In this document: piece by piece, positions 87-18,731 of the stretch
Layout: each line of letters begins with the position of its first letter
Numbering within the stretch: position 1 is the stretch's first letter
Source of the DNA: a virus
DNA: 18,731 bases
UHGV virus genome: UHGV-0371767
Reading direction: 5' to 3' (one strand)
Made by a program: the position numbers and the translations under genes
Notes under the pieces: model-generated
Seen by the model: only the letters and a program-made list of their open reading frames with translations
Database searches by the model: none
What the model was told of the DNA's origin: nothing

Positions 87-638
87 ATGATGCCAGTTAG
101 CCATTATCTCTGCATTTTCATAAACGTTGGTTTGGGAGAAGGCTCTGCATTACCTGTTGGGGTGCCTGTTCCGTGGCCCTCAGCCACTCCGCCAACAGGC
201 TGGCTGAAATGCAACGGAGCAGCTTTTTCTGCTGAAAAATACCCGGAACTGGCAAAGGCTTACCCGACAAATAAATTGCCTGATTTACGCGGTGAATTTA
301 TTCGTGGCTGGGATGACGGACGTGGTATGGATACGGGGAGGGCAATATTATCCGCTCAGGGCGATGCCATACGTAATATCTATGGTGAGTTCAAGACTGT
401 AAACACCGAAAATTATTCAATATGGGAATCAGTAGGCTCGTTTAAGGGGGCAGTAGTGCCTTTGAACCCCTCAACGAACAATAGTTATTTCTCCTTAATC
501 AGAAGTATGGTGACCGAAAGAACAGATGGCGCTGTTTACCCAAAAGTGATTGGCCTTGATGCTTCAAGAATTGTTCCAACTGCAAACGAAAACCGTCCTC
601 GTAACATTGCCTTTAATTATATCGTGAGGGCTGCCTGA
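87..638 (+). CDS. Alternative tail-fibre C-terminal variable domain, silent in this orientation (real coding part starts near 129, inside the invertible segment)
   Basis: ORF shares the GLGE junction peptide with the expressed fibre; it lacks a credible independent start because the first 14 codons lie outside the segment; stop codon overlaps the start of the downstream assembly gene (CTGATG at 633..640). Confidence 0.7.
   Translation: MMPVSHYLCIFINVGLGEGSALPVGVPVPWPSATPPTGWLKCNGAAFSAEKYPELAKAYPTNKLPDLRGEFIRGWDDGRGMDTGRAILSAQGDAIRNIYGEFKTVNTENYSIWESVGSFKGAVVPLNPSTNNSYFSLIRSMVTERTDGAVYPKVIGLDASRIVPTANENRPRNIAFNYIVRAA
115..140. repeat. Invertase crossover site, left (26 bp: two 12-bp half-sites around a 2-bp core), gix/cix/pix-like
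   Basis: Plus strand TTTTCATAAACGTTGGTTTGGGAGAA; its reverse complement TTCTCCCAAACCAACGTTTATGAAAA shares the first 14 nt and 20 of 26 positions with the site at 2099..2124, in inverted orientation. Architecture fits the Hin/Gin site family. Confidence 0.8.
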
Positions 639-1240
639 TGAATAAAGCCGTATTAAATAACGAACTCATTGCCATAAAAGCGGGAGTCATTACCATTTAT
701 AATTATGATGGTGAAACGCGGGAATATATTTCCACATCAACTGAATATCTTGCGGTTGGCGTCGGTATCCCGGCATGTTCTTGTTTAGATGCACCAGTTA
801 CACATAAAGCTGGTTATGCAATCTGCCGTTCTGCAGATTTTAACTCATGGGAATATGTGCCAGACCATCGCGGTGAAATCATCTATAGCACCGAAACAGG
901 AGAATCGAAAGAAATCACAGCTCCGGGTGATTATCCTGAAAATACAACCACTATCGCCCCGTTAACGCCATACGATGAATGGGATGGTGAGAAATGGGTG
1001 ACAGATACTGAGGCACAGCATAGCGCCGCAGTAGGCGCGGCAGAAGCACAGCGTCAGTCACTGATTGATACTGCAATGGCTTCCATTAGTCTGATTCAAC
1101 TGAAATTGCAGGCCGGGCGGAAGCTGATGCAGACAGAAAACACCCGACTTAACGCTGTGCTGGATTACATTGACGCGGTGACGGCAACAGATACCAGCAC
1201 CGCGCCGGACGTCATCTGGCCTGAACTGCCGGAGGCGTAG
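638..1240 (+). CDS. Tail-fibre assembly protein (alternative copy, paired with the silent fibre tail)
   Basis: 200-aa ORF directly following the alternative fibre tail with ATG/TGA overlap; its 3' end converges on and overlaps the other assembly gene (1212..1240). Position and arrangement match Mu U/U' and P2 G-type assembly genes. Confidence 0.7.
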   Translation: MNKAVLNNELIAIKAGVITIYNYDGETREYISTSTEYLAVGVGIPACSCLDAPVTHKAGYAICRSADFNSWEYVPDHRGEIIYSTETGESKEITAPGDYPENTTTIAPLTPYDEWDGEKWVTDTEAQHSAAVGAAEAQRQSLIDTAMASISLIQLKLQAGRKLMQTENTRLNAVLDYIDAVTATDTSTAPDVIWPELPEA

Positions 1241-1655
1241 GCCATTCAATATCTGGCGCACCGGAAGTATCAACCAGTTCCAGTGCGTCCAGATAATCCA
1301 GCCATAAATTATATTGTTCCAGCTCGTCACCTTTCAGACGACCAATAGCAGCTTTGCCAGGCCACTGATGGGTATTGATGTAGGTATTGACTTCTGAAAC
1401 CAAAGATATTTTTTTCATTTCAGCCGTCAACACCTCATCCTCTTTTGAAGGCGGTGGGGAATTAATCCATATTGGTCGTCCTGAACTGTCAGCGCCAATT
1501 TCTTTCCCTTCTGGATGCAGCCCAAGAAATTTCTCATATGTTTCTCGGGTAATTTCAATAACATCATCTGGAAGCGTTCCCGCATCCTCATATTCTGGAA
1601 ACAATTCTTGCAGATAAAAACTTTTACTCCCGGGTGAAAAGAATACTGAGTTCAT
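1212..1655 (-). CDS. G: Tail-fibre assembly protein (expressed copy)
   Basis: 147-aa ORF immediately downstream of the tail-fibre gene (ATG at 1655, fibre stop at 1658..1660), inside the invertible segment; typical fibre/assembly-protein pairing. Confidence 0.75.
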   Translation of the reverse strand: MNSVFFSPGSKSFYLQELFPEYEDAGTLPDDVIEITRETYEKFLGLHPEGKEIGADSSGRPIWINSPPPSKEDEVLTAEMKKISLVSEVNTYINTHQWPGKAAIGRLKGDELEQYNLWLDYLDALELVDTSGAPDIEWPTPPAVQAR

Positions 1656-5009: not shown

Positions 5010-5584
5010 ACCGGGCCTCCGGTTGTGTCACCGCCTTTCAGGACGCCAGTATGCTGATGTGCATCAACCACAATTCCGTTAGAACTCATTGCACCGCCGC
5101 CCTGGGTAACACCACCATTGATCACTACTTCGCTGTTAATGCGTGTGCGGTCAGCCTCCAGTACAAACTCACTGGTTTTCAGGGTGATATTGTCGGCAGC
5201 CTCAATGACCATAGATTTGATGCCCCTGACATACCAGCGCCCGGTGGCGGGTTCGTATTCAAACCTGCCACCGTCCGGGTACTCAACCACGTTGCCGTCC
5301 TCAGAGTCAGAAGGTGGTGGAAACTGATTTGAGTAGACAGCAGGTAGGGCAAACGCGGTTTCCAGATTGCCACCCAGGCTGAATAGCACAACCTGCTCGC
5401 CCACAGACGGTTTCCACCAGGTGCGCGATTTGCCCGCGCGCAGTGTCAGCCAGTTAATCCAGTTGGTTTCGAGGTCGCCAGTTTTCACCCGGCAAAGCCA
5501 GTTATCCCGGTCCACTTCGGTGACTACCCCAGTACGGATCAGGTTGGTGATAAGGCGCATGATTTCTGCAAGTTGTGCGTTCAT
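5006..5584 (-). CDS. V: Baseplate central spike protein V
   Basis: 192-aa ORF first in the V-W-J-I-H-G block; ATG at 5582..5584; size close to P2 gpV. Confidence 0.7.
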   Translation of the reverse strand: MNAQLAEIMRLITNLIRTGVVTEVDRDNWLCRVKTGDLETNWINWLTLRAGKSRTWWKPSVGEQVVLFSLGGNLETAFALPAVYSNQFPPPSDSEDGNVVEYPDGGRFEYEPATGRWYVRGIKSMVIEAADNITLKTSEFVLEADRTRINSEVVINGGVTQGGGAMSSNGIVVDAHQHTGVLKGGDTTGGPV

Positions 5585-5624
5585 TCGCTTAGGATGTCGA
5601 TTAGTCGACTTCTTTGGTAGATCA

Positions 5625-5650
5625 TGTAAATTGTGTCATACATGACACAA
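5625..5650. promoter_or_regulatory. Palindromic element with two overlapping TGT-N12-ACA motifs in the V / inserted-gene intergenic region
   Basis: TGT(5625-5627)-N12-ACA(5640-5642) and TGT(5633-5635)-N12-ACA(5648-5650); core inverted repeat TTGTGTCAT-AC-ATGACACAA at 5631..5650. TGT-N12-ACA is the motif I recall for Ogr/Delta activator sites at P2 late promoters, but the spacing to either flanking start codon does not fit the usual -55 position. Confidence 0.35.
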
Positions 5651-5675
5651 TGCTAATTCACGAAAGAGAGTAATA

Positions 5676-6332
5676 ATGATGGTTTTGGATAAAGAGCAAT
5701 ATCAAGAAGTTCTAAACGAACTAGAGAAAAGAAGATATAACTCCAGAAGATCAACCACAATATTCATGACAGCCATGATCGTCATACTTGCTTATATTGC
5801 CACTGCAGTCATTTACGTAGAATTACAGAAAACACATGAAAAGGATAGAATTTCATCGCTGCTAACCGCTGACGGAATTAAATCCGTAGAATCAACAATT
5901 GACAGCTTAAATCGTGCCAGTATTGAGCTTTCTAGAAAACAAACCCAGATAAAAAACACACCTAACTCAACCCCTCAAATTCAAATAAGCGGAATAGCCC
6001 CTTTACCTTCAACACTAAACCAAAAGTCTTCTATAGATAAAATTCTAGAAACAGTAGGACCTATACTAATAGTGTTTTCCGCTATTCTATTTGTTGTGTA
6101 TATACTTCGTCTTTTTATTATATTCTTAAAATACAATATGCAAATGAATAATGATTACGACAATCAAAAAATCTCTTTTCTGCTTTCAGGTGGAGACACG
6201 AAAGAGTTTGGAGAGATACTTCAAAAAGTAAGAGGTCACAATATAAGTTTTGAAAAGACCCCTACTCTTCCGCAAGAAAAAATAATAACTGAACTGGTTG
6301 ATTTAGTTAAATCAATTAAGGGAAAGAATTAA
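5676..6332 (+). CDS. AT-rich inserted gene: predicted inner-membrane protein with two transmembrane helices, unknown function
   Basis: 218-aa ORF with AAGAGAG ribosome-binding site before ATG 5676; hydrophobic stretches around aa 28-50 and 118-148; codon usage and base composition visibly AT-rich compared with flanking phage genes; opposite strand to the late operons; lies where I recall P2 orf30. Confidence 0.7.
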   Translation: MMVLDKEQYQEVLNELEKRRYNSRRSTTIFMTAMIVILAYIATAVIYVELQKTHEKDRISSLLTADGIKSVESTIDSLNRASIELSRKQTQIKNTPNSTPQIQISGIAPLPSTLNQKSSIDKILETVGPILIVFSAILFVVYILRLFIIFLKYNMQMNNDYDNQKISFLLSGGDTKEFGEILQKVRGHNISFEKTPTLPQEKIITELVDLVKSIKGKN

Positions 6333-6775
6333 CTCCTCAACCAGCAAAGTAAAATACTTCGGGTCAAAGACTCTACATCTTGACTAACCCCTAGCAGTTG
6401 TCTTTGAGCGTATAACACCTCCGGCCCCCGACGGCTTACACGATCACGTAAGCCGTAATGATGTACCCGGACAATCCGCTGCACCTGCCCGGTAAACTCG
6501 ACGCTGGCAGAATCAGGATTGGCGGCAGTTTTCAGGTATTTTGTGGTGCGCAGCTTTGCAAACATCTGACGTTTGATGCGCCCCTTTTTACTGCGTGCTG
6601 TTACCCGTCGAGGTTCATAACTGCTGCCATCTGGATTGCGCTGCATCCTGATGTTCTGCTGCTGTGTCCGGCGCAGTTCCTGCGCCAGCTGGCGCATCAT
6701 GCGGCTTCTGGCGGCTGGCTCCAGATTCGCCAGCAAGGCACTCAGCCAGTCGTCCACTTTCTGCAGTTCAGCCAC
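6329..6775 (-). CDS. S: Tail completion protein S
   Basis: 148-aa ORF, position and size match P2 gpS; overlaps R by 8 nt; start appears to be GTG at 6775. Confidence 0.65.
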   Translation of the reverse strand: MAELQKVDDWLSALLANLEPAARSRMMRQLAQELRRTQQQNIRMQRNPDGSSYEPRRVTARSKKGRIKRQMFAKLRTTKYLKTAANPDSASVEFTGQVQRIVRVHHYGLRDRVSRRGPEVLYAQRQLLGVSQDVESLTRSILLCWLRS

Positions 6776-8810: not shown

Positions 8811-9014
8811 TCAGTCCCATAGCTGGACGGTCTGCACGGTGGTGGTGGTCGGAATGTCCGGCAGCTCCACCTGCAGCCCGTGAGGTAAAAAGGGGCCGTA
8901 TTCGGCAAGCCCCGGATTTGCCTTCAGTACCTGCTCCGTGACACCCTGCGTGCGCCCGTAATGACGCCAGCAAAGCGCGTCCACCGTGTCATACTGATGC
9001 GCACGCACTTTCAT
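8811..9014 (-). CDS. X: Tail protein X
   Basis: 67-aa ORF between head completion gene and holin; size and position as for P2 gpX. Confidence 0.7.
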   Translation of the reverse strand: MKVRAHQYDTVDALCWRHYGRTQGVTEQVLKANPGLAEYGPFLPHGLQVELPDIPTTTTVQTVQLWD

Positions 9015-9478
9015 CAGATAAGCTCCACTGTGCAGTGCGGCGCATCCTGCACCCGGCTGATGGCCCAGCGGGCGTCACGCCACAAATCACCGCTGGATTC
9101 CGCCAGTTCCTCGCCTCGCTTCACACCGGATGCCGTGGCGTCATAGTCCTGGTATCGTTCGTTGAGCATGGCGCGTGCCCAGCAGTAAACCGCGTTGAAA
9201 TAGTGCTGAATGCGCTCACTTTTGCCGTCCAGCTGTTCCGCCGGAACCTCAGCCAGCGACACATACCCCAGCATCTGCTGACGTCTGCGAAACTCATACA
9301 GCTCTGCGTTGACCTCCGAAATTGCCGACAGCGCAACCTGCTTTAAACGCGGCTGCGTCACCGTGCCGTCAGTGCGCATGACACTGCGAAATTCCGACAG
9401 GTCCACATCAGGCCAGAACGGCGTGTTTCTGATGATTTCCGCCTGTTCCGGTGCCTGTTCTGGCGCAACAAACTTCAT
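9014..9478 (-). CDS. L: Head completion/stabilisation protein L
   Basis: Resembles P2 gpL as recalled; the ATG at 9478 has an AGGAGA ribosome-binding site, whereas the ORF-track start at 9541 is GTG with none. Confidence 0.7.
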   Translation of the reverse strand: MKFVAPEQAPEQAEIIRNTPFWPDVDLSEFRSVMRTDGTVTQPRLKQVALSAISEVNAELYEFRRRQQMLGYVSLAEVPAEQLDGKSERIQHYFNAVYCWARAMLNERYQDYDATASGVKRGEELAESSGDLWRDARWAISRVQDAPHCTVELI

Positions 9479-9573
9479 GCTGCTTTCTCCTGAAATAGAG
9501 GGCGGTGGACGGGGTTTTGATATGGCAGTGCCTTTCGCCACCCCGTGCCGCCCGTGCGCGGGGGCACGTTCTG

Positions 9574-10224
9574 TCAGCGGCTGTCATTGCGCAGTCTGCG
9601 CTCCAGCTGCTGTTTGTCTTTTTTCACGCCACAGCGGGGATCGAGCTGTAACGCATGGTTGAGATGATTAAGGGCGGACGCCGGATTGTTTTCACTCAGG
9701 ACAGCGCCAATCGCTTTATGCAGACGCGCCCGTGACTGGTCCGGCATATCCATACCGTCTGTCAGCTCCAGCGTCTGCAGCAACAGATCGGCATCAAAGC
9801 CGGTGGCGGCAAGCATTGCGCTCTGGGCTGCATCTGCCATTTCCTCTGCCAGCACGGTCTGCACGTTGCGGTTACCTAACGGCATCACCCAGCCATGACG
9901 CAGGGCGTGACGCCCGATCTCCAGCCCCCCGGCATAATCTCCGGCATCAATGCGCCACAGCATCACGTACATCAGCACGTCATCCTGCTGTGCGCCTCCG
10001 GCAGCCAGGACACCCTCCGCCCAGGCGGCGTACTTCGGCAGCAGCTCCACTTTGATTTCCGCTTTTTTGACCGTGGACTGAACCCCCTTGAGACGGCGGC
10101 GGTCTTCCGCCAGTTGCAGCAGCATCAGGTCATAGCCCGACGCGTGGCGAACACTGCCGCCCTCGCGGGCGGCCTGTTCAGCCTGAACGCGCAGGCGATG
10201 CTGCCGTGCGGGACTCAGGCTCAT
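9574..10224 (-). CDS. M: Terminase endonuclease (small) subunit M
   Basis: 216-aa ORF following the capsid gene in the O-N-M-L order; ATG at 10224. Confidence 0.7.
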   Translation of the reverse strand: MSLSPARQHRLRVQAEQAAREGGSVRHASGYDLMLLQLAEDRRRLKGVQSTVKKAEIKVELLPKYAAWAEGVLAAGGAQQDDVLMYVMLWRIDAGDYAGGLEIGRHALRHGWVMPLGNRNVQTVLAEEMADAAQSAMLAATGFDADLLLQTLELTDGMDMPDQSRARLHKAIGAVLSENNPASALNHLNHALQLDPRCGVKKDKQQLERRLRNDSR

Positions 10225-10227
10225 GGA

Positions 10228-11286
10228 TTACGCTCCGGTTTCTGCTGCGGCGGCGCTGAAGTCGCCAATCTGGATGTTTTCCACCAGTGCGGCGCAGCGG
10301 TAGTCCTCAACCACATAGGCTTCGTTAACGGATTCAAAGTTTTCAATCCGGTCACGTTTCGGGTTGTCGATAACTGAACGGCGGCGGGTGTCTTCCTGCC
10401 AGTAGATGGACAGGTTATCCAGACGGGTGATCAGCAGCGCATTCGGCGGGAAGAACGGCGCACGCACGGCCTGCAGGCCACCCATGCGTTTCTGACTGAT
10501 GATCATATCGGCAGCCAGTTTTTCACTGTTTTCCTGCTCTTTGTTGACCAGTGGGAAATACTTGTCAGACAGCAGTTCACGACCGCAAATCACCACCAGA
10601 TCGTCATCGTCCTGGTAGACCACGTCGATAAGCTCATTAACGGCATCCATCACCACGGCGTCCAAGTTGGCATATTCGCCACCTTTACCAACTTTCACCG
10701 CACCCGGTGTGGTTTCACCGCCCGTGGTGGTGCTGCCCATGACGTGATCCGGTGCATCCTCACGGATTTTCTGCAGCCAGCCTTTGTTTACATCCTGCAG
10801 CAGCGGGTTTTCACTACGGTTGGAGGTTTTCGCACGCTTCACGCCGTTAAAGCCGATCATGATGCGGTCCAGAGCCTGACGTTTCACGATGGCGTCACGG
10901 ATACGCACCTGAAAATCCTGAAACTTCGCCCACAGGTCCAGCTTCGCGTAGGTCAGTACCGTGTCAAAGTTGGTCTGCTCGCATTTATATTCCACATCGA
11001 CCATCAGCGTCGGATCGACAGGTTCACGCTCTTTCGCGGTGGTGTCAGTGGTTCCGGCAATGGTGCTGCCAACTCCCAACCCCAGCAGCTGACCGGACTG
11101 CTCAGTCACTGGCGTGACGTTAATCAGCGTCAGGAAAGCGGCGGACTGCTGGATCTGGTCTTCCAATGTCTGCTGCACGGACGGCTCTACGGTGAACTTG
11201 CTGGACAGTTCTTCAACTGCCACACCGTTCAGACGCGCCAGCTGCTTCAGGTAAGCGTTAAAAGCAAAGCGGGTATTCTTCTTCAT
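10228..11286 (-). CDS. N: Major capsid protein N
   Basis: 352-aa ORF with GGAG ribosome-binding site; size and position match P2 gpN (recalled as about 357 aa). Confidence 0.8.
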   Translation of the reverse strand: MKKNTRFAFNAYLKQLARLNGVAVEELSSKFTVEPSVQQTLEDQIQQSAAFLTLINVTPVTEQSGQLLGLGVGSTIAGTTDTTAKEREPVDPTLMVDVEYKCEQTNFDTVLTYAKLDLWAKFQDFQVRIRDAIVKRQALDRIMIGFNGVKRAKTSNRSENPLLQDVNKGWLQKIREDAPDHVMGSTTTGGETTPGAVKVGKGGEYANLDAVVMDAVNELIDVVYQDDDDLVVICGRELLSDKYFPLVNKEQENSEKLAADMIISQKRMGGLQAVRAPFFPPNALLITRLDNLSIYWQEDTRRRSVIDNPKRDRIENFESVNEAYVVEDYRCAALVENIQIGDFSAAAAETGA

Positions 11287-11302
11287 CAGGTTTTGTGCTC
11301 CA

Positions 11303-12136
11303 TCAGCAATTGGTCAGAGTGTCAGCGGGGGCGTTACCGCCTGTTGCACGCTGGCGGTAGTCCTGGCGGCTGTCTTCTTGGCTCAACTTGTCCACCAGTT
11401 CGTTAAAGGCGGTCTGCTGTGCCTGCAGGGCAGTCTCCAGCTCAGACAGGCGTTCTTCCTGCTCAGACAGGGATTTTTCGGTGCGCGCACTCAGGTTCTG
11501 CTGCTCAGTGGCGACCAGTTCCACGGCCTTATGCACATCAGAGAACCGGGCATCATCGGACTGCTCTTTTTTGGTGAACAGCGCTGTGACACGGGCAAAC
11601 AGGGACGGTTTGTCATCCTGGATTTCTTCCAGTTCGATCACCGTTTCCTCTGCAGCGGTAAAAAGATTGGCGGGATTCTGCTTGCGGTTTGCCAGCGGGT
11701 TATGAGCTGCACTGGCGCTGAATGTCAGCATTTCAGTGCCCAGACTGGCAGGGTCATCAGTGGCAGCCAGGCCGACCAGGTAGGCTTTGCCCGTATCAGC
11801 GAACTTCGGGCTGACTTCCATAGAGGTGAATAATTTCTGGCCTTTTTTCACCAGTTCCACCAGGGACTCCGTTGGCTCAACGTCGGCATACAGCGCCATC
11901 TTGCCTGCCAGCGGACCTTCCGTGATTTCTTCAGCAAACAGCGCCGTCACCTTGCCGTAGCGGTTAAAGGTGCTGTCCGGCAGATAAGACTTGATGTGCT
12001 CAAGGTTAATCAGCGCGGTATACACCGCCGGGTTGTAGCTGGCTGCCATCTGTTCCAGCCATTCACGCTGGATTTCGCGTCCGTCGGTGGTGGCACCTTC
12101 CACCCCGATGCGAAAACGCTTTGCTTTCACTGTCAT
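11303..12136 (-). CDS. O: Capsid scaffolding protein O
   Basis: 277-aa ORF, acidic, coiled-coil-rich C-terminal half; first gene of the leftward late operon, divergent from P. Confidence 0.75.
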   Translation of the reverse strand: MTVKAKRFRIGVEGATTDGREIQREWLEQMAASYNPAVYTALINLEHIKSYLPDSTFNRYGKVTALFAEEITEGPLAGKMALYADVEPTESLVELVKKGQKLFTSMEVSPKFADTGKAYLVGLAATDDPASLGTEMLTFSASAAHNPLANRKQNPANLFTAAEETVIELEEIQDDKPSLFARVTALFTKKEQSDDARFSDVHKAVELVATEQQNLSARTEKSLSEQEERLSELETALQAQQTAFNELVDKLSQEDSRQDYRQRATGGNAPADTLTNC

Positions 12137-12214
12137 GAGCCGTGCTCCGTTAGAAAAAACTTACTGGAGCCTTATGGTTGCGGTGATGGGGGCAGTGAAA
12201 CAATGCGCGGTATT

Positions 12215-12232
12215 TGTACCGACAACCACACA
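12215..12232. promoter_or_regulatory. TGT-N12-ACA box in the divergent O/P intergenic region (candidate Ogr/Delta activator site for the O-operon late promoter)
   Basis: TGT at 12215-12217, 12-nt spacer, ACA at 12230-12232. The centre is about 87 nt upstream of the O start codon, compatible with a -55 site and a roughly 30-nt leader; too close to the P start to serve P. Confidence 0.4.
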
Positions 12233-12278
12233 AACCGCAGGCGGGGAAAGCCTTCATTCAAGGCTGTAGGTTTGTGCC

Positions 12279-14045
12279 ATGAACACCACACTGACACCCG
12301 CAGATCTCGATCCCCGTCGGCAGGCCATGCTGCTGTACTTTCAGGGATACCGCGTAGCCCGCATTGCTGAAATGCTGGGCGAGAAAGTTGCAACCGTTCA
12401 CAGCTGGAAAAAACGCGACAAGTGGGGTGACTATGGGCCGCTGGATCAGATGCAGCTCACCACCGCCGCCCGCTACTGCCAGCTCATTATGAAGGAGCAC
12501 AAAGAAGGGAAAGATTTCAAAGAGATTGACCTGCTGGCGCGCCAGTCGGAGCGCCACGCGCGGATCGGCAAGTTTAACAATGGCGGCAACGAAGCCGACT
12601 TAAACCCAAACGTCGCCAACCGCAACAAAGGCCCGCGCCGTCAGCCGGAAAAGAATGTTTTCACCGATGAACAGATTGAGAAGCTGGAAGAAATCTTCCA
12701 TTCCTCCATGTTCAACTACCAGCGCCACTGGTGGGAAGCCGGAAAAACCAACCGCATCCGCAACCTGCTGAAGTCACGCCAGATCGGCGCGACCTTTTAC
12801 TTTGCCCGTGAAGCCCTGATTGACGCCCTGCTGACCGGGCGTAACCAGATTTTCCTTTCCGCCAGTAAGGCACAGGCGCACGTCTTTAAGCAGTACATCA
12901 TCGACTTCGCCAAAGAAGTGGAAGTGGAGCTGAAAGGCGATCCGATGGTGCTTCCTAACGGTGCCACGCTTTACTTCCTCGGCACCAATGCCCGCACGGC
13001 CCAGAGTTATCACGGCAACCTGTATCTGGATGAATATTTCTGGATACCGAAATTTCAGGAGCTGCGCAAAGTGGCTTCCGGTATGGCTATTCACAAGAAA
13101 TGGCGGCAGACCTATTTTTCCACGCCATCCAGCCTGACACACAGTGCTTATCCGTTCTGGTCCGGTGCGCTGTTCAACCGTGGGCGCAACAAAGCTGACA
13201 AGGTGGACATCGACCTGTCCCACAGCAATCTGGCCCCCGGCCTGCTGTGCGCAGACGGGCAATACCGCCAGATAGTCACCGTGGAAGATGCGGTGCGCGG
13301 CGGCTGTAACCTGTTCGACCTCGACCAGCTACGCATGGAGTACAGCCCGGACGAATACCAGAACCTGCTGATGTGCGAGTTCGTGGACGATCTCGCGTCC
13401 GTGTTCCCGCTCAGCGAACTGCAGGCGTGCATGGTGGACAGCTGGGAAGTCTGGACCGACTTTCATGCACTGGCCCTGCGCCCGTTTGGCTGGCGCGAAG
13501 TGTGGATCGGTTATGACCCGGCGAAAGGTACGCAGAACGGCGACAGTGCCGGATGCGTGGTGGTGGCTCCGCCAGCCGTGCCAGGCGGCAAGTTCCGCAT
13601 TCTTGAGCGTCACCAGTGGCGCGGGATGGACTTTCGCGCCCAGGCTGACGCCATCAAAAAACTGACCGAACAGTACAATGTGACCTATATCGGTATCGAC
13701 TCAACCGGCGTTGGTCACGGGGTTTACGAGAACGTGAAAGCGTTTTTTCCTGCCGTCCGGGAGTTTGTCTACAACCCCAACGTTAAAAACGCCCTGGTAC
13801 TCAAGGCCTACGACATTATCAGCCACCGCCGTCTGGAGTTTGACGCCGGACACACCGACATAGCACAGTCCTTTATGGCAATCCGTCGTGCCACCACCGC
13901 CAGCGGCAACCGCCCGACCTATGAAGCCAGCCGCAGCGAAGAAGCCAGCCACGCCGATCTGGCTTGGGCAACAATGCACGCACTGTTTAACGAACCACTG
14001 CAAGGCGAGTCCGCCAATACCAGTAATATTGTGGAGATTTTTTGA
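12279..14045 (+). CDS. P: Terminase ATPase (large) subunit P
   Basis: 588-aa ORF, size matching P2 gpP (recalled as about 590 aa); stop overlaps the portal start (TGATG). Confidence 0.85.
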   Translation: MNTTLTPADLDPRRQAMLLYFQGYRVARIAEMLGEKVATVHSWKKRDKWGDYGPLDQMQLTTAARYCQLIMKEHKEGKDFKEIDLLARQSERHARIGKFNNGGNEADLNPNVANRNKGPRRQPEKNVFTDEQIEKLEEIFHSSMFNYQRHWWEAGKTNRIRNLLKSRQIGATFYFAREALIDALLTGRNQIFLSASKAQAHVFKQYIIDFAKEVEVELKGDPMVLPNGATLYFLGTNARTAQSYHGNLYLDEYFWIPKFQELRKVASGMAIHKKWRQTYFSTPSSLTHSAYPFWSGALFNRGRNKADKVDIDLSHSNLAPGLLCADGQYRQIVTVEDAVRGGCNLFDLDQLRMEYSPDEYQNLLMCEFVDDLASVFPLSELQACMVDSWEVWTDFHALALRPFGWREVWIGYDPAKGTQNGDSAGCVVVAPPAVPGGKFRILERHQWRGMDFRAQADAIKKLTEQYNVTYIGIDSTGVGHGVYENVKAFFPAVREFVYNPNVKNALVLKAYDIISHRRLEFDAGHTDIAQSFMAIRRATTASGNRPTYEASRSEEASHADLAWATMHALFNEPLQGESANTSNIVEIF

Positions 14046-15076
14046 TGGGAAAGAGTAAGAAGAACCGCGCTGCGTCGACGAACCAGATCCAGCATAAAAG
14101 CCAGACTTCAGCCGAAGCATTCAGCTTCGGTGATCCCGTTCCTGTTCTGGACCGCCGCGAACTACTGGACTATGTGGAATGCGTACAGACAGATCGCTGG
14201 TATGAGCCGCCAGTAAGCTTTGACGGACTGGCGCGCACCTTCCGCGCCGCCGTGCATCACAGTTCACCAATTGCGGTGAAATGCAACATTCTGACCAGTA
14301 CCTACATCCCTCACCCGCTGCTCAGCCAGCAGGCTTTTTCACGTTTTGTGCAGGACTATCTGGTATTTGGTAACGCCTACCTGGAGAAACGCACGAACCG
14401 CTTCGGTGAAGTTATCGCCCTTGAGCCAGCTTTGGCAAAATACACCCGACGCGGATTAGACCTGGATACCTACTGGTTTGTGCAATACGGTATGACAGCC
14501 CAGCCGTATCAGTTCACGAAAGGCAGCATTTTTCATCTGATGGAACCGGACATCAACCAGGAGATCTACGGCCTGCCCGGTTATCTTTCTGCCATTCCAT
14601 CCGCCCTGCTCAACGAATCCGCCACGCTGTTCCGCCGCAAGTATTACATTAACGGCAGTCATGCTGGCTTCATCATGTACATGACCGACGCCGCGCAGAA
14701 CCAGGAAGATGTGAACAACCTCCGTAATGCGATGAAAAGCGCCAAAGGCCCAGGCAATTTCCGCAACCTGTTTATGTACTCGCCTAACGGCAAAAAGGAT
14801 GGTCTTCAGATTATCCCGTTATCAGAAGTCGCGGCAAAGGATGAATTTCTTAACATCAAGAACGTCAGCCGTGATGATATGATGGCGGCGCATCGTGTAC
14901 CGCCACAGATGATGGGGATTATGCCGAATAATGTTGGGGGGTTTGGGGATGTGGAGAAGGCGGCAAATGTATTTGTGCGTAATGAGCTTATTCCATTACA
15001 AAAAATACTCGAAGAAATAAATAATTGGTTAGACAATACAATAATACAATTCAAAAATTACTCATTGACGATGTAA
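14045..15076 (+). CDS. Q: Portal (capsid vertex) protein Q
   Basis: 343 aa from the ATG at 14045 (the ORF track starts 3 nt earlier at a TTG); size and position match P2 gpQ. Confidence 0.85.
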   Translation: MGKSKKNRAASTNQIQHKSQTSAEAFSFGDPVPVLDRRELLDYVECVQTDRWYEPPVSFDGLARTFRAAVHHSSPIAVKCNILTSTYIPHPLLSQQAFSRFVQDYLVFGNAYLEKRTNRFGEVIALEPALAKYTRRGLDLDTYWFVQYGMTAQPYQFTKGSIFHLMEPDINQEIYGLPGYLSAIPSALLNESATLFRRKYYINGSHAGFIMYMTDAAQNQEDVNNLRNAMKSAKGPGNFRNLFMYSPNGKKDGLQIIPLSEVAAKDEFLNIKNVSRDDMMAAHRVPPQMMGIMPNNVGGFGDVEKAANVFVRNELIPLQKILEEINNWLDNTIIQFKNYSLTM

Positions 15077-15080
15077 ATTA

Positions 15081-15110
15081 AAATTTAGCTGGCTAATGCC
15101 AGCTAAATTT
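15081..15110. terminator. Bidirectional intrinsic terminator between convergent genes Q and the cargo operon
   Basis: Perfect 13-bp stem AAATTTAGCTGGC / GCCAGCTAAATTT with 4-nt loop TAAT, flanked by A/T runs on both sides; sits between the Q stop (15074..15076) and the cargo gene stop (15113..15115). Confidence 0.7.
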
Positions 15111-15112
15111 TA

Positions 15113-15742
15113 TCATTTCAAATAACGACAATCAGTTTCCCTATCAAGAAAATCAATCATTTCATCATTTGTATAATGTGCATTCAAACCAATTTTAAAC
15201 GTTGGCGGATTAGAATAAAAGACGTCGAAATGATATAATGGATGACGATTTCCATTAGCCCTTTCTTCATCGACATCATATCTAATATAACCATCCTCAT
15301 AAGTTAACAACATTCTAAGAAAAGGCCAAAACCCGGGAATACCTTGATGTTCTTCAATATTTAACAATGGTTCAAAAAAGGCCCAAGAAGAACTATTCAA
15401 ATAAGAGGAGTCATTAATAAAAGAAATGACTTTTGATGTTACAAAACTATCTATACACTCCATTTCTGGACTACTAAATAAAATCTGACCATTAATTTCA
15501 TCAAGAAAAAAAGGAAATGCAAGAGAATAATATTTATTTTCACTAAAGAAGAAAACTCGACTCATCTTTGATATATGAAGTTTCACTCTCCCAACCACAT
15601 TCTGTTCGCATGGTTCTGTATAAACAGAAATTAGTTTGATTAATCTCATCAATATTTCAATAACATCTTTCTTTGTTCGTATTGGCTTAAAGGCCCAGTC
15701 ACACTGAGCCTGCTCCAGACTAAAATAATACTCTTTATTCAC
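15113..15742 (-). CDS. Cargo gene B: 209-aa soluble protein of unknown function, translationally coupled to the upstream helicase-like gene
   Basis: GTG start at 15742..15740 preceded by AGGAG 5 nt upstream and overlapping the upstream stop (GTGA); AT-rich composition; no recognisable catalytic motif. Confidence 0.65.
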   Translation of the reverse strand: MNKEYYFSLEQAQCDWAFKPIRTKKDVIEILMRLIKLISVYTEPCEQNVVGRVKLHISKMSRVFFFSENKYYSLAFPFFLDEINGQILFSSPEMECIDSFVTSKVISFINDSSYLNSSSWAFFEPLLNIEEHQGIPGFWPFLRMLLTYEDGYIRYDVDEERANGNRHPLYHFDVFYSNPPTFKIGLNAHYTNDEMIDFLDRETDCRYLK

Positions 15743-17817
15743 TTCGACTCCTGAAGCATTATTTCATAGTTGAACCGAACAAGAGTAGTAATTTTATCGA
15801 CATCAAAAGAATCAGGCATGATTGTTTTTACTGTATTATACAGGGATGTACGAAATATCGGCTCAATCTGTAAGTCATCGAAGACCTTTGTAACCAAATC
15901 ATAATGAGATATATTTTTCTCATCATATTTGATTGTTGTTCTTATTTTTGAAATAACTTCTCTCGGTGGAACGTTAATATCCATATAACCATGCTCATTA
16001 ATAGCATCTAACCCCTTTTCTATCTCATTCTGTAAGTCTTTATTCCCATCCCCCAGAAGCAAATATGATTTAATAAAGGAACGAGTTAACATCATATATA
16101 GTGAATTTCGATAAGAATGGCTCTTGATAATATCACGAGTAACACAGATAACAAAAGGAAACTCCAACCCTTTTACATGGTTTTTATTACTTATGAATAA
16201 CGTATCTTTAATTTTTTCTTTTGTTTCATATGCCTTATTAACCTTCCACCCTAATAATCTAGGCACGCTCAATTCAAGTCTGTCTGCGATTTTAAATATA
16301 GTCTTAGCCTGATCAATAAAGATGATACCAATATCATCAGCCAAAACAGTAGGATTCTCCTCCTTAATTTTACGGAGTATACCCAAAATATTCTCTTCTT
16401 CAGTTTCATATGTGGAATTAATTAATTCCACACTATGTATTTTTGCATCCGTTACATCTTCAAATCTTCTTAGTGGCTCTCTCTTTAATCTTAATTTACC
16501 TTTTACCGATTCATCAACTATATAACCGCAGGCTTCCCATTCATTATTCATTAACCAAGTTAATGGTTCTTCTTCAAATAGCCCCATACCTAAACCATGA
16601 GCAAACATCAATGTCCTTGGATCTGTTCGGTAGCATTTACTTAGAAGAAAGTCTGGCTGTATCTCATTAGAGATATTAGTATCAAATATACTTTGAAATA
16701 TATCACCAGCAACATAAATAGTATCACGAGTTACCAGCTCGCAAAGCTCAATGAAGCTTGATGGGAAATCCTGACTTTCATCTATTAACATAAAGTCAAA
16801 GCAATGCTTAAATTCATTGCTTGGCAACTTTTTTAGTTCATCCAACGCAATTCTACATACTTTATCGAAAGTCATCACATAGCTAAAGCGATAGAAACTT
16901 AATCCATAATATTCACATATATATCTATATGCGCCAGAGTTACCGTCATATTGAGAACCCCATGCATTAACACACCAAAGTCTTTCATTCCAGCTAATCT
17001 GCTGCTCGACCTTCATAAAGTTGAAAAACTCTGGAATTCTCTTTCTCATATTGTCTGCCAATATTTTATTATGGCACGTAAACATTATTTTACTATTTAA
17101 ATTCTCCTTATCCAAATATATTTCCTTTAACTTATGAAGCAATAGTTCAGTCTTACCAGTACCTGATAATCCTTGAATAACAACTTTTTTCTTATCAAAT
17201 TTTTGGTATACAAACCTTGTCTGATCTCCATCAAACAAAATTATCTTTTGCTTAACCTTGTCAAGTATATTATCTGGCACATTGCCTTTAACTTTATCAA
17301 TATTATTGATACTTCCTGTTAAGAGAGAGATAATTAACTCACTCTTTTTAGCCAGAACACCATCAATAATTTTAATTTCATCAAAAAACTTATCAAGATT
17401 ACCGAAACTAAAATCAGCGTATGAGCACTCAGTAACAAGTTTATCTTTCCACGCTCGAGGCCTACCAATTGTATCTTTATAATTGTATTTATCTGATAAG
17501 GAACCTAAATCCTCTATAAAATCCTCTATAAAATTTTGTATACCATCAACATCATCACTAAAAGCAACGAACGCTAATTGGTATCCTGGGCTTAATATAA
17601 TAAGAACATCGTCTCTATTATATTTATATTTATTTTCCCCTAAGGGATTCATTATTGCATAAATCTGCATTTGATGAGTATTTGCATACTCTTCAACAGA
17701 GTTCAAAAAATCAGCATTTGTATCATTTTTTAAATCAGGCTGGATATAAAAGAAACTGCTCATAGAAAGCCTTAACGAGGTGGATAAAAACTTATATGTT
17801 GTTTCTAAAATTAGCAT
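15739..17817 (-). CDS. Cargo gene A: SF1 helicase-like P-loop ATPase (UvrD/RecD/DUF2075-like motifs) with an unassigned N-terminal domain of about 200 aa
   Basis: 692-aa ORF. Walker A GLSGTGKT (aa 216-223), motif II LIDESQD (aa 344-350), motif III VAGDIFQS (aa 369-376), motif IV CYRT (aa 395-398), motif VI-like YMMLTRS near the C-terminus. Strongly AT-rich. The true start may be the internal ATG at 17763 (AAGG ribosome-binding site), giving 674 aa. Confidence 0.75.
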   Translation of the reverse strand: MLILETTYKFLSTSLRLSMSSFFYIQPDLKNDTNADFLNSVEEYANTHQMQIYAIMNPLGENKYKYNRDDVLIILSPGYQLAFVAFSDDVDGIQNFIEDFIEDLGSLSDKYNYKDTIGRPRAWKDKLVTECSYADFSFGNLDKFFDEIKIIDGVLAKKSELIISLLTGSINNIDKVKGNVPDNILDKVKQKIILFDGDQTRFVYQKFDKKKVVIQGLSGTGKTELLLHKLKEIYLDKENLNSKIMFTCHNKILADNMRKRIPEFFNFMKVEQQISWNERLWCVNAWGSQYDGNSGAYRYICEYYGLSFYRFSYVMTFDKVCRIALDELKKLPSNEFKHCFDFMLIDESQDFPSSFIELCELVTRDTIYVAGDIFQSIFDTNISNEIQPDFLLSKCYRTDPRTLMFAHGLGMGLFEEEPLTWLMNNEWEACGYIVDESVKGKLRLKREPLRRFEDVTDAKIHSVELINSTYETEEENILGILRKIKEENPTVLADDIGIIFIDQAKTIFKIADRLELSVPRLLGWKVNKAYETKEKIKDTLFISNKNHVKGLEFPFVICVTRDIIKSHSYRNSLYMMLTRSFIKSYLLLGDGNKDLQNEIEKGLDAINEHGYMDINVPPREVISKIRTTIKYDEKNISHYDLVTKVFDDLQIEPIFRTSLYNTVKTIMPDSFDVDKITTLVRFNYEIMLQESK

Positions 17818-17897
17818 TTTTCAACAAACTTTTCCATTCAGCCATCATCTTGCAGGTGCTTGTTTTGCCTTCCCCCCCACTCAGCCACTTGCGCGCG

Positions 17898-17916
17898 CTC
17901 GTATCCCCGCCACGCC
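17898..17916. other. Candidate cos site (cohesive-end sequence of a P2-like phage)
   Basis: Reverse complement of 17891..17925 reads GGCGTGGCGGGGATACGAGCGCGCGC, close to the P2 left cohesive end as I recall it (GGCGAGGCGGGGAAAGCAC followed by TGCGCGC); embedded in a short GC-rich block (about 17850..18060) between two AT-rich cargo regions. Confidence 0.55.
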
Positions 17917-18236
17917 TGCCCGCTTTGTATAGCGGTTTTCATGCACTCGCATGGCATAAGGGAAACCTTGCCAGAACTGGCGACCCTCAGCGAAAACGAT
18001 CTTCAAACGATCATGCGGATTCATGCAGCATAGACAGGCACTACTGAGCAATAGCGCTTGAGTTCAGTCAGATATGAGTCCTCAATGTAATACTAATACA
18101 TCTTAACCGTTCATCATTATTCACATCGGGCTATGTAATTACAGAAAAACTTTTCACAATCAATTTTATACTGGATTATTTCAGTTTATTGTATAATTCA
18201 TGACGCATGCAAATTGACATTAATTCAGGAGACAAA

Positions 18237-18731
18237 ATGACATTAATTGTAGCTGGTTTCGAAAAAGATGGAACAATTGTTTTTTGCGGGGACTCACTAA
18301 TAACAACAAAAGCAAATGGAAGCACTGTAAAATTGACATCGTCCTTCAGAAAAATAATACCACTAGAAATTATTGTGCGAGTACCGGAAATCGATCCAAG
18401 TGGAAAAATCATAAATTACATTGAAAGCCTTTGCCAACATCGCTGCATGATTGCATTTGCAGGAAGCACGCTAGTTTCTCAACATATTATAAATTCTATA
18501 CAAGGTCATCTGAAACAAATAAAATACACGTATGATTCTGGCACATATGACTATTCAGAAGGATGCATAAAGGGTGCTGGCTATAAGTTAATAATGGGTT
18601 GTGAAGATAACAAAAGCGTTGAGGAAACCTATTGGAACGAAGATATGTTTGTTGAGCCAGTAAAGAATGCGAACGAACTTATTAATAAAAATTTTCTACG
18701 CAACGTCTTTAGCCACTGCATACAGAAAACC
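18237..18731 (+). CDS. AT-rich cargo gene beyond cos, 3'-truncated by window end (165 codons visible); weak proteasome/HslV-like Ntn-hydrolase N-terminal signature
   Basis: ATG at 18237 preceded by AGGAG (18227..18231) and a TATAAT box at 18192..18197; open reading frame runs without stop to the window end (absent from the ORF track for that reason). N-terminus MTLIVAGFEKDGTIVFCGDS and later IAFAGS loosely resemble HslV (TTIVSVRRNGHVVIAGDGQ… VIAGFAGG). Confidence 0.55.
   Translation, partial: MTLIVAGFEKDGTIVFCGDSLITTKANGSTVKLTSSFRKIIPLEIIVRVPEIDPSGKIINYIESLCQHRCMIAFAGSTLVSQHIINSIQGHLKQIKYTYDSGTYDYSEGCIKGAGYKLIMGCEDNKSVEETYWNEDMFVEPVKNANELINKNFLRNVFSHCIQKT

Follow-up and report, generated by a model that had tools for sequence, protein, structure and literature searches.

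The two minus-strand genes between the portal gene Q and the cos site in an 18,731-nucleotide stretch of the virus genome UHGV-0371767 (the window), here called gene A and gene B, are best explained overall as a two-gene anti-phage or anti-mobile-element system carried as cargo by a P2-like prophage on the Q side of cos, a reading to which we assign a probability of roughly 75%. Gene A encodes a superfamily 1 (SF1) helicase and gene B a small partner protein, and profile comparisons indicate that the pair is very probably of the Helicase+DUF2290 type, forming a divergent STM2767/STM2766 subfamily. A preliminary description of this DNA had proposed cargo with a candidate defense function, a reading supported by the occurrence of a helicase and small partner in a variable, defense-enriched slot of P2-like phages. 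It had also called the pair unclassified, which does not hold, since the pair matches entry 119 of Table S5B in Rousset et al. 2022 (PMC9122126) and both proteins have NCBIfam equivalog models; the helicase–DUF2290 pair that it named as a fallback agrees with the label of that entry and with our profile tests.

We examined the gene A protein and its relatives to define its start, domains and family. Translation almost certainly begins at the second ATG of the longest open reading frame (ORF), judging from the sequences of homologs, which all begin MSSFF or MSSSFF, from the 674-residue length given in most database entries and by the Prokaryotic Genome Annotation Pipeline (PGAP), and from the NCBIfam match, which begins at residue 20 of the longer frame. 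Both ORFs of the preliminary description are present, gene B with the stated 209 residues and GTG start and gene A with 674 residues rather than 692, so that the Walker A lysine first numbered K222 is K204. Gene A scores 990.8 bits against NCBIfam NF053713 ('STM2767 family DEAD/DEAH box helicase'; equivalog cutoff 550), with weak and generic Pfam matches to UvrD_C_2, UvrD-helicase and AAA_19. In addition to Walker A and motif II, the protein contains GDIFQS, YR, KGLEFPF and TRS, and each SF1 motif shows conservation of 90% or more among 29 members of the family, confirming the motif set noted at the outset. The N-terminal domain, initially described as about 200 residues that could not be assigned, has a restriction-endonuclease-like alpha/beta fold and is possibly catalytically degenerate. 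No classical D...(D/E)xK motif was seen in its core strands, and a group of conserved residues (D81, E84, D85, S90 and D91, invariant, and K92, at least 90% conserved) lies in the helix after those strands. HMMER found no NERD domain in this region, and an hhalign comparison with the N-termini of canonical helicases gave no significant match.

Gene B follows gene A with the signals of translational coupling that had been noted from the sequence, an AGGAG 5 nt 5′ of a GTG start that overlaps the TGA stop of gene A. The gene B protein scores 212 bits against NCBIfam NF053714 (equivalog cutoff 70) and belongs to a family that forms 81 clusters when grouped at 90% identity and has 793 representatives (E ≤1e-3) at the 50% level, nearly all of them stand-alone proteins of about 210 residues. 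Across 142 members, residues R62, R154, D158, H167, P168, D173 and K183 are invariant, with D156 and H171 conserved in 90% or more. Direct searches with the window protein returned no match to Pfam PF10053 or PADLOC PDLC02998/02999 up to E 1, and pairwise BLASTP against an E. coli P4-type DUF2290 protein gave E = 1.0. Some relatives lie closer to these models: 13 of the 142 members match PF10053 at E ≤0.01 (best 27.7 bits, one member above the gathering cutoff of 25), and 15 match the PADLOC DUF2290 model PDLC02998.

To compare gene B with canonical DUF2290 proteins at the profile level, we used an alignment of 13 canonical sequences, seven from a seeded homolog search together with those of annotated plasmid loci, in which the core reads RTPIRIDFD...HPxxHxH...TR. 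Comparison with the 142-member gene B profile in hhalign gave a match at 93.4% probability (E 2.4e-7, 45 core columns) that pairs IRYDxD...HPLxHxD...TFK of gene B with IRIDFD...HPxxHxH...TR of the canonical proteins, and the score of 53 fell to about 12 (E 0.43–0.47) when either profile was reversed. Significance is reached between profiles alone, as hhalign gives a weak result (15%) when only one DUF2290 sequence is set against the profile of the gene B family, and the rest of gene B outside the core has no confident alignment to DUF2290. On the strength of the profile match, the low scores of the reversed controls and the unaligned remainder, we consider gene B a genuine remote DUF2290 homolog that retains the common core and has diverged elsewhere. 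The predicted structure of gene B, a confident model, has no relative among solved (PDB) or viral structures.

The Pfam and PADLOC searches that had been suggested as a check place gene A nearest to the helicase model of Helicase+DUF2290 and leave gene B without a direct match. The best PADLOC match of gene A is PDLC03002 'Helicase' (2.9e-28, 96.5 bits), with partial coverage and the best stretch at residues 182–364, and other PADLOC helicase models, including RTasHel and GajB, score at most 28 bits. We verified the identity of PDLC03002 with the helicase of the Lactococcus plasmid pLLD17C, which matches the model at 3.7e-168 and is overlapped downstream by a gene annotated as DUF2290 that matches both PADLOC DUF2290 models; gene A shares 26% identity with this canonical helicase over residues 184–625 (BLASTP). 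A tblastn search with gene A also recovered plasmid helicases outside its own family from Bacillus, Exiguobacterium, Corynebacterium, Acinetobacter, E. coli and Thioflavicoccus, and an annotated DUF2290 gene lies directly 3′ of all seven of the more distant plasmid helicases inspected. The helicase is upstream of a co-oriented partner in the window and at loci L001–L008, L011 and L013–L015, and the newest PGAP annotation gives the names STM2767 and STM2766 to the copy in E. coli N9, which is 99% identical in DNA.

The window pair therefore resembles canonical Helicase+DUF2290 systems in having two usually overlapping genes with the helicase first and the small partner second, an SF1 UvrD-like helicase of about 670–720 residues with an N-terminal nuclease-like domain, a partner of about 210–260 residues with an R-x-D-x-D...H-P-x-x-H...[K/R] core, and a home in plasmids and the cos-proximal hotspots of P2/P4-type elements. 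It differs in that gene A is only about 26% identical and is covered in part by the PADLOC model, while gene B escapes the Pfam and PADLOC DUF2290 hidden Markov models (HMMs), lacks pairwise similarity, does not align over its N-terminal two-thirds and carries D in place of H as the third metal-type ligand; NCBI curation likewise places the pair in the separate STM2766/STM2767 family.

This branch is already on record, catalogued and annotated and apparently never cloned. Rousset et al. 2022 (PMC9122126) described the cos-proximal region from gpA to gpQ of P2-like phages as a defense hotspot, in accord with the preliminary description, and reported 1,650 gene arrangements there with 169 systems curated in Table S5B. 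Entry 119 of that table is labeled 'DUF2290 | NERD/AAA_19/UvrD_C' and is assigned 26 occurrences in the P2 hotspot; its first sequence differs from gene B by a single substitution, and the second agrees with gene A over the portion given in the table, from MSSFFYIQPD. The E. coli match NZ_CP029057 appears in the same supplement with the gene B accession, and the sequences of genes A and B have no match in the table of cloned constructs. The validated Helicase+DUF2290 construct of that study, pFR91, comes from a P4-like satellite of Klebsiella pneumoniae SB5961 and is active against T7 (PMC9122126). In the Pseudomonas aeruginosa PAO1 pair PA1372/PA1371, classed as Helicase+DUF2290 with PA1372 as the helicase (PMC11637435), loss of PA1372 abolishes a plasmid fitness cost and SOS induction (PMC4410645, PMC11637435), and a lactococcal homolog gave no protection against the phages used to test it. 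Compared by description, PA1372/PA1371 and the window operon are both low-GC, horizontally acquired pairs of helicase and partner with conserved synteny, although the PAO1 phenotype is plasmid fitness cost and SOS induction rather than phage resistance. Our literature search found STM2766/STM2767 as locus markers in Salmonella typing only, no phenotype experiment on this subfamily, and no published mechanism for any DUF2290 system.

The window carries a P2-family morphogenetic block. Sequence identity to E. coli and Klebsiella P2-like prophages, in which capsid and portal genes of the P2 family are annotated, is 96% over positions 9000–15076, and the ORF sizes of the block match those annotated in E. 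coli N9. The two minus-strand ORFs occupy the AT-rich interval 3′ of Q, where GC content falls to 0.30–0.35 over 15001–17500 from 0.53–0.61 in the backbone, about 25 points lower. Beyond Q, megablast of the cargo against phages limits similarity to P2-like phages to a segment of about 160 bp that contains the cos cohesive end (Table 1), the counterpart of P2 cosL GGCGAGGCGGGGAAAGCAC, positioned in the window by eye against P2. The distance from cosL to the Q stop is 2,821 bp in the window versus 167 bp in P2, where the tQ terminator is the sole content of the interval, which places the operon between Q and cos. A hairpin at the position of the P2 tQ terminator abuts the stop codons of Q (15076) on one side and of gene B (15113) on the other and folds at −20.8 kcal/mol (z = −6.0), with 0 of 200 shuffles folding equally well. 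Three elements of the preliminary description are confirmed here: the closeness of Q to cos in P2, an AT-rich insert in the window (about 2.8 kb rather than 2.7 kb), and a perfect, bidirectional terminator-like hairpin closing it. Gene A starts only about 134 bp (17764–17897) from the cos cohesive end; a promoter scan found no sigma-70-like promoter between them, with overall counts below shuffle expectation. In a packaged linear genome the operon would lie at the extreme left end.

Table 1. Coordinates of the Q-to-cos cargo operon and adjoining features in the window
Feature	Position	Strand	Description
Terminase gene P	12279..14045	+	ORF
Portal gene Q	14042..15076	+	Left boundary of cargo slot
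Bidirectional terminator-like hairpin	15079-15112	.	Perfect 15-bp stem, 4-nt loop
Gene B, STM2766-family helicase-associated protein, probable divergent DUF2290 homolog	15113..15742	-	209 aa, GTG start
Gene B conserved core EDGYIRYDVD...HPLYHFD...TFKIG	15188..15298	-	Proposed metal-binding or catalytic site
Coupling signal	15739..15752	-	AGGAG (15748-15752), then GTGA stop/start overlap (15739-15742)
Gene A, longest ORF	15739..17817	-	692 aa
Gene A, STM2767-family SF1 (UvrD-like) helicase	15739..17763	-	674 aa from second ATG
Gene A SF1 helicase core	16054..17196	-	aa about 190-570
Motif II DESQD	16768-16782	-	Gene A core
Walker A GLSGTGKT	17149-17172	-	Gene A core
Gene A N-terminal domain	17314..17763	-	aa 1-150 (674-aa numbering), restriction-endonuclease-like alpha/beta fold
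cos cohesive-end 19-mer GGCGTGGCGGGGATACGAG	17898-17916	-	Inside conserved cos segment (~17889-18057)

We surveyed the occupancy of this slot and the distribution of the pair. The operon occurs in five of 5,426 complete E. coli genomes, at about 99% identity and in the same position, and the flanking P2-type sequences occur in 1,252 of them. Other E. coli P2-like prophages carry unrelated genes between portal and cos, including TIR with a hypothetical gene, AIPR, DUF262, ImmA/IrrE with a hypothetical gene, a P-loop NTPase, DUF6953 and other hypothetical genes, which supports the variable cargo slot envisaged in the preliminary description. Unrelated cargo in the Q-to-cos slot was also seen on two 96%-identical P2-like backbones, with about 2.9 kb from cos to the end of the portal match in Klebsiella phage Kp4849-2 (OK490403.1) and about 1.8 kb in E. 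coli CP019275.1.

Outside this position, gene A had no tblastn match among 50,697 phage records, and homologs of gene A are found on plasmids, satellites and chromosomal islands, with full-length copies on plasmids of Clostridium, Acinetobacter, Pantoea, Salmonella and Lacticaseibacillus. The order of helicase then partner, with overlapping or abutting genes, is kept in Lactococcus, in Emticicia (Bacteroidota) and in Klebsiella P4-like satellites. The Lactococcus plasmid pair is 34% and 36% identical to the window pair, and the Klebsiella-group pair (L013–L015), whose gene B shows about 40% identity, occurs at three separate chromosomal sites, each time directly 3′ of a P4-type primase (D5_N/Pox_D5). 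This position beside the primase places the divergent branch in the P4-satellite hotspot as well. The accessory exclusion genes old and tin of P2 occupy the same cos-proximal hotspot between gpA and gpQ; their proteins are unrelated to those of the window operon, and their place in P2 is the flank of cos toward gpA, that of the operon the flank toward Q.

As a tentative model for the action of the pair, we propose a division of labor between a helicase sensor and a metal-dependent DUF2290 effector. Translational coupling would supply both proteins in a fixed ratio and allow them to act as a complex. Gene A would be an SF1 UvrD-like motor with a catalytically degenerate-looking nuclease-fold N-terminal domain that surveys or translocates on DNA and senses something characteristic of foreign DNA as it invades or replicates, for example its ends or the intermediates of replication. 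The effector would be gene B, with its invariant R-D-D...H-P-x-x-H-x-D...K cluster set on a three-stranded sheet; it might be a phosphodiesterase or nuclease that depends on metal and either halts phage replication or kills the cell. A divalent-metal site in gene B is suggested by the replacement of the H of canonical DUF2290 by D, a swap typical of such sites. The likely parallel with Hachiman is a functional analogy only, in which a helicase sensor holds a small effector in a heterodimer and responds to the state of DNA; the protein families are different. In Hachiman, HamB is a superfamily 2 helicase and HamA a DUF1837 PD-(D/E)xK nuclease. Gabija offers a further comparison in GajB, a UvrD-like SF1 helicase to which gene A has weak matches of 26 bits, far below the match to the DUF2290-partner helicase, and the window pair lacks an OLD-family ATPase/TOPRIM partner. 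Membership in either system was considered and rejected, as no Hachiman model is among the PADLOC matches of either protein and, for Gabija, GajB matches reach at most 26 bits with no GajA-like partner.

The roles of the two proteins could instead be reversed, with the restriction-endonuclease-like N-terminal domain of the helicase as the nuclease effector and gene B as a sensor, regulator or specificity subunit, the principal rival to our model, which we regard as unlikely. It is similarly doubtful that the STM2766/STM2767 branch is functionally distinct from canonical Helicase+DUF2290, with a new metal-dependent effector fold and a different trigger or target spectrum; this idea draws on the small R-D-D/H-H-D/K core set in a protein body of about 140 residues that is unrelated in other respects, and on a confident structural model without a solved or viral relative.

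A main role in competition between elements or in the prophage's own biology, such as the exclusion of plasmids, P4-like satellites or competing P2-like phages, appears improbable, though several observations point toward it: PA1372/PA1371 acts on a plasmid and not a phage, homologs are carried both by P2-like phages and by their P4-like parasites, and a system from the hotspot can act against relatives of P2 (Rousset 2022, PMC9122126). Set against these, canonical Helicase+DUF2290 blocks T7, and the host-defense and competition readings can both hold. A toxin–antitoxin or addiction module that stabilizes the prophage without sensing infection would fit a small overlapping two-gene operon on mobile elements, with toxin–antitoxin systems present at neighboring plasmid loci, but we judge it very improbable given that neither protein matches a toxin–antitoxin family in Pfam, NCBIfam or PADLOC, that a 674-residue helicase with all motifs conserved is atypical of such modules, and that the nearest relatives form a validated defense system; the rarity of the operon, its variable slot and its foreign base composition also fit such a module poorly. 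A housekeeping replication, recombination or packaging helicase of the phage lineage, conceivable in view of the SF1 helicases known from phage replication modules and the position of gene A beside cos, is effectively refuted by the absence of the gene from P2, its rarity among E. coli genomes compared with its flanks, the unrelated cargo of the slot in other prophages, the blank search of phage records, its foreign base composition and its family relationships across plasmids, satellites and chromosomal islands.

Three further regions of the window stand apart from the operon. A second region of AT-rich cargo (18060–18731), located on the gpA side of cos, contains a plus-strand ORF that begins at ATG 18237 behind an AGGAG (18227–18231) and runs past the window end, with 165 residues seen (MTLIVAGFEKDGTIVFCGDSLITTK...). 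This ORF has no Pfam, PADLOC or NCBIfam match, its DNA has no match in the 5,426 complete E. coli genomes, and it is rarer and less characterized than the operon. Together with the operon, the cargo at 18060–18731 means that both flanks of cos are occupied in the same prophage. In the tail-gene region, an AT-rich island at 5501–6500 (GC 0.37–0.39) contains a 218-residue ORF (5676..6332, plus strand) with no Pfam or PADLOC match and an NCBIfam match below threshold; the island may represent another variable slot for cargo in P2-like phages, at what we take to be the Z/fun position. Positions 87–1655, also of lower GC, carry a tail-collar-domain ORF (87..638, plus strand) followed by Caudo_TAP ORFs on opposite strands (638..1240, plus; 1212..1655, minus), and look like an alternative or invertible tail-fiber cassette with opposed Caudo_TAP tail-fiber-assembly ORFs.

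These results close the question raised by the preliminary description, in that the operon is of the helicase–DUF2290 type and published as a catalogue entry: real, and not new. The PADLOC v2 and Pfam DUF2290 HMMs miss the partner protein of the large STM2766 branch, with its 793 representatives, and Helicase+DUF2290 is therefore probably under-counted in surveys. With the operon on the Q side and other cargo on the gpA side, the window indicates that both flanks of cos accept cargo within one prophage. The residues invariant in the two branches alike (R, D, D, H, H, H/D, K/R) provide a short, testable list for a possible catalytic or metal site, and if the STM2766/STM2767 branch were distinct from the canonical system, which is T7-specific, comparing the two could reveal the mechanism of the whole family.

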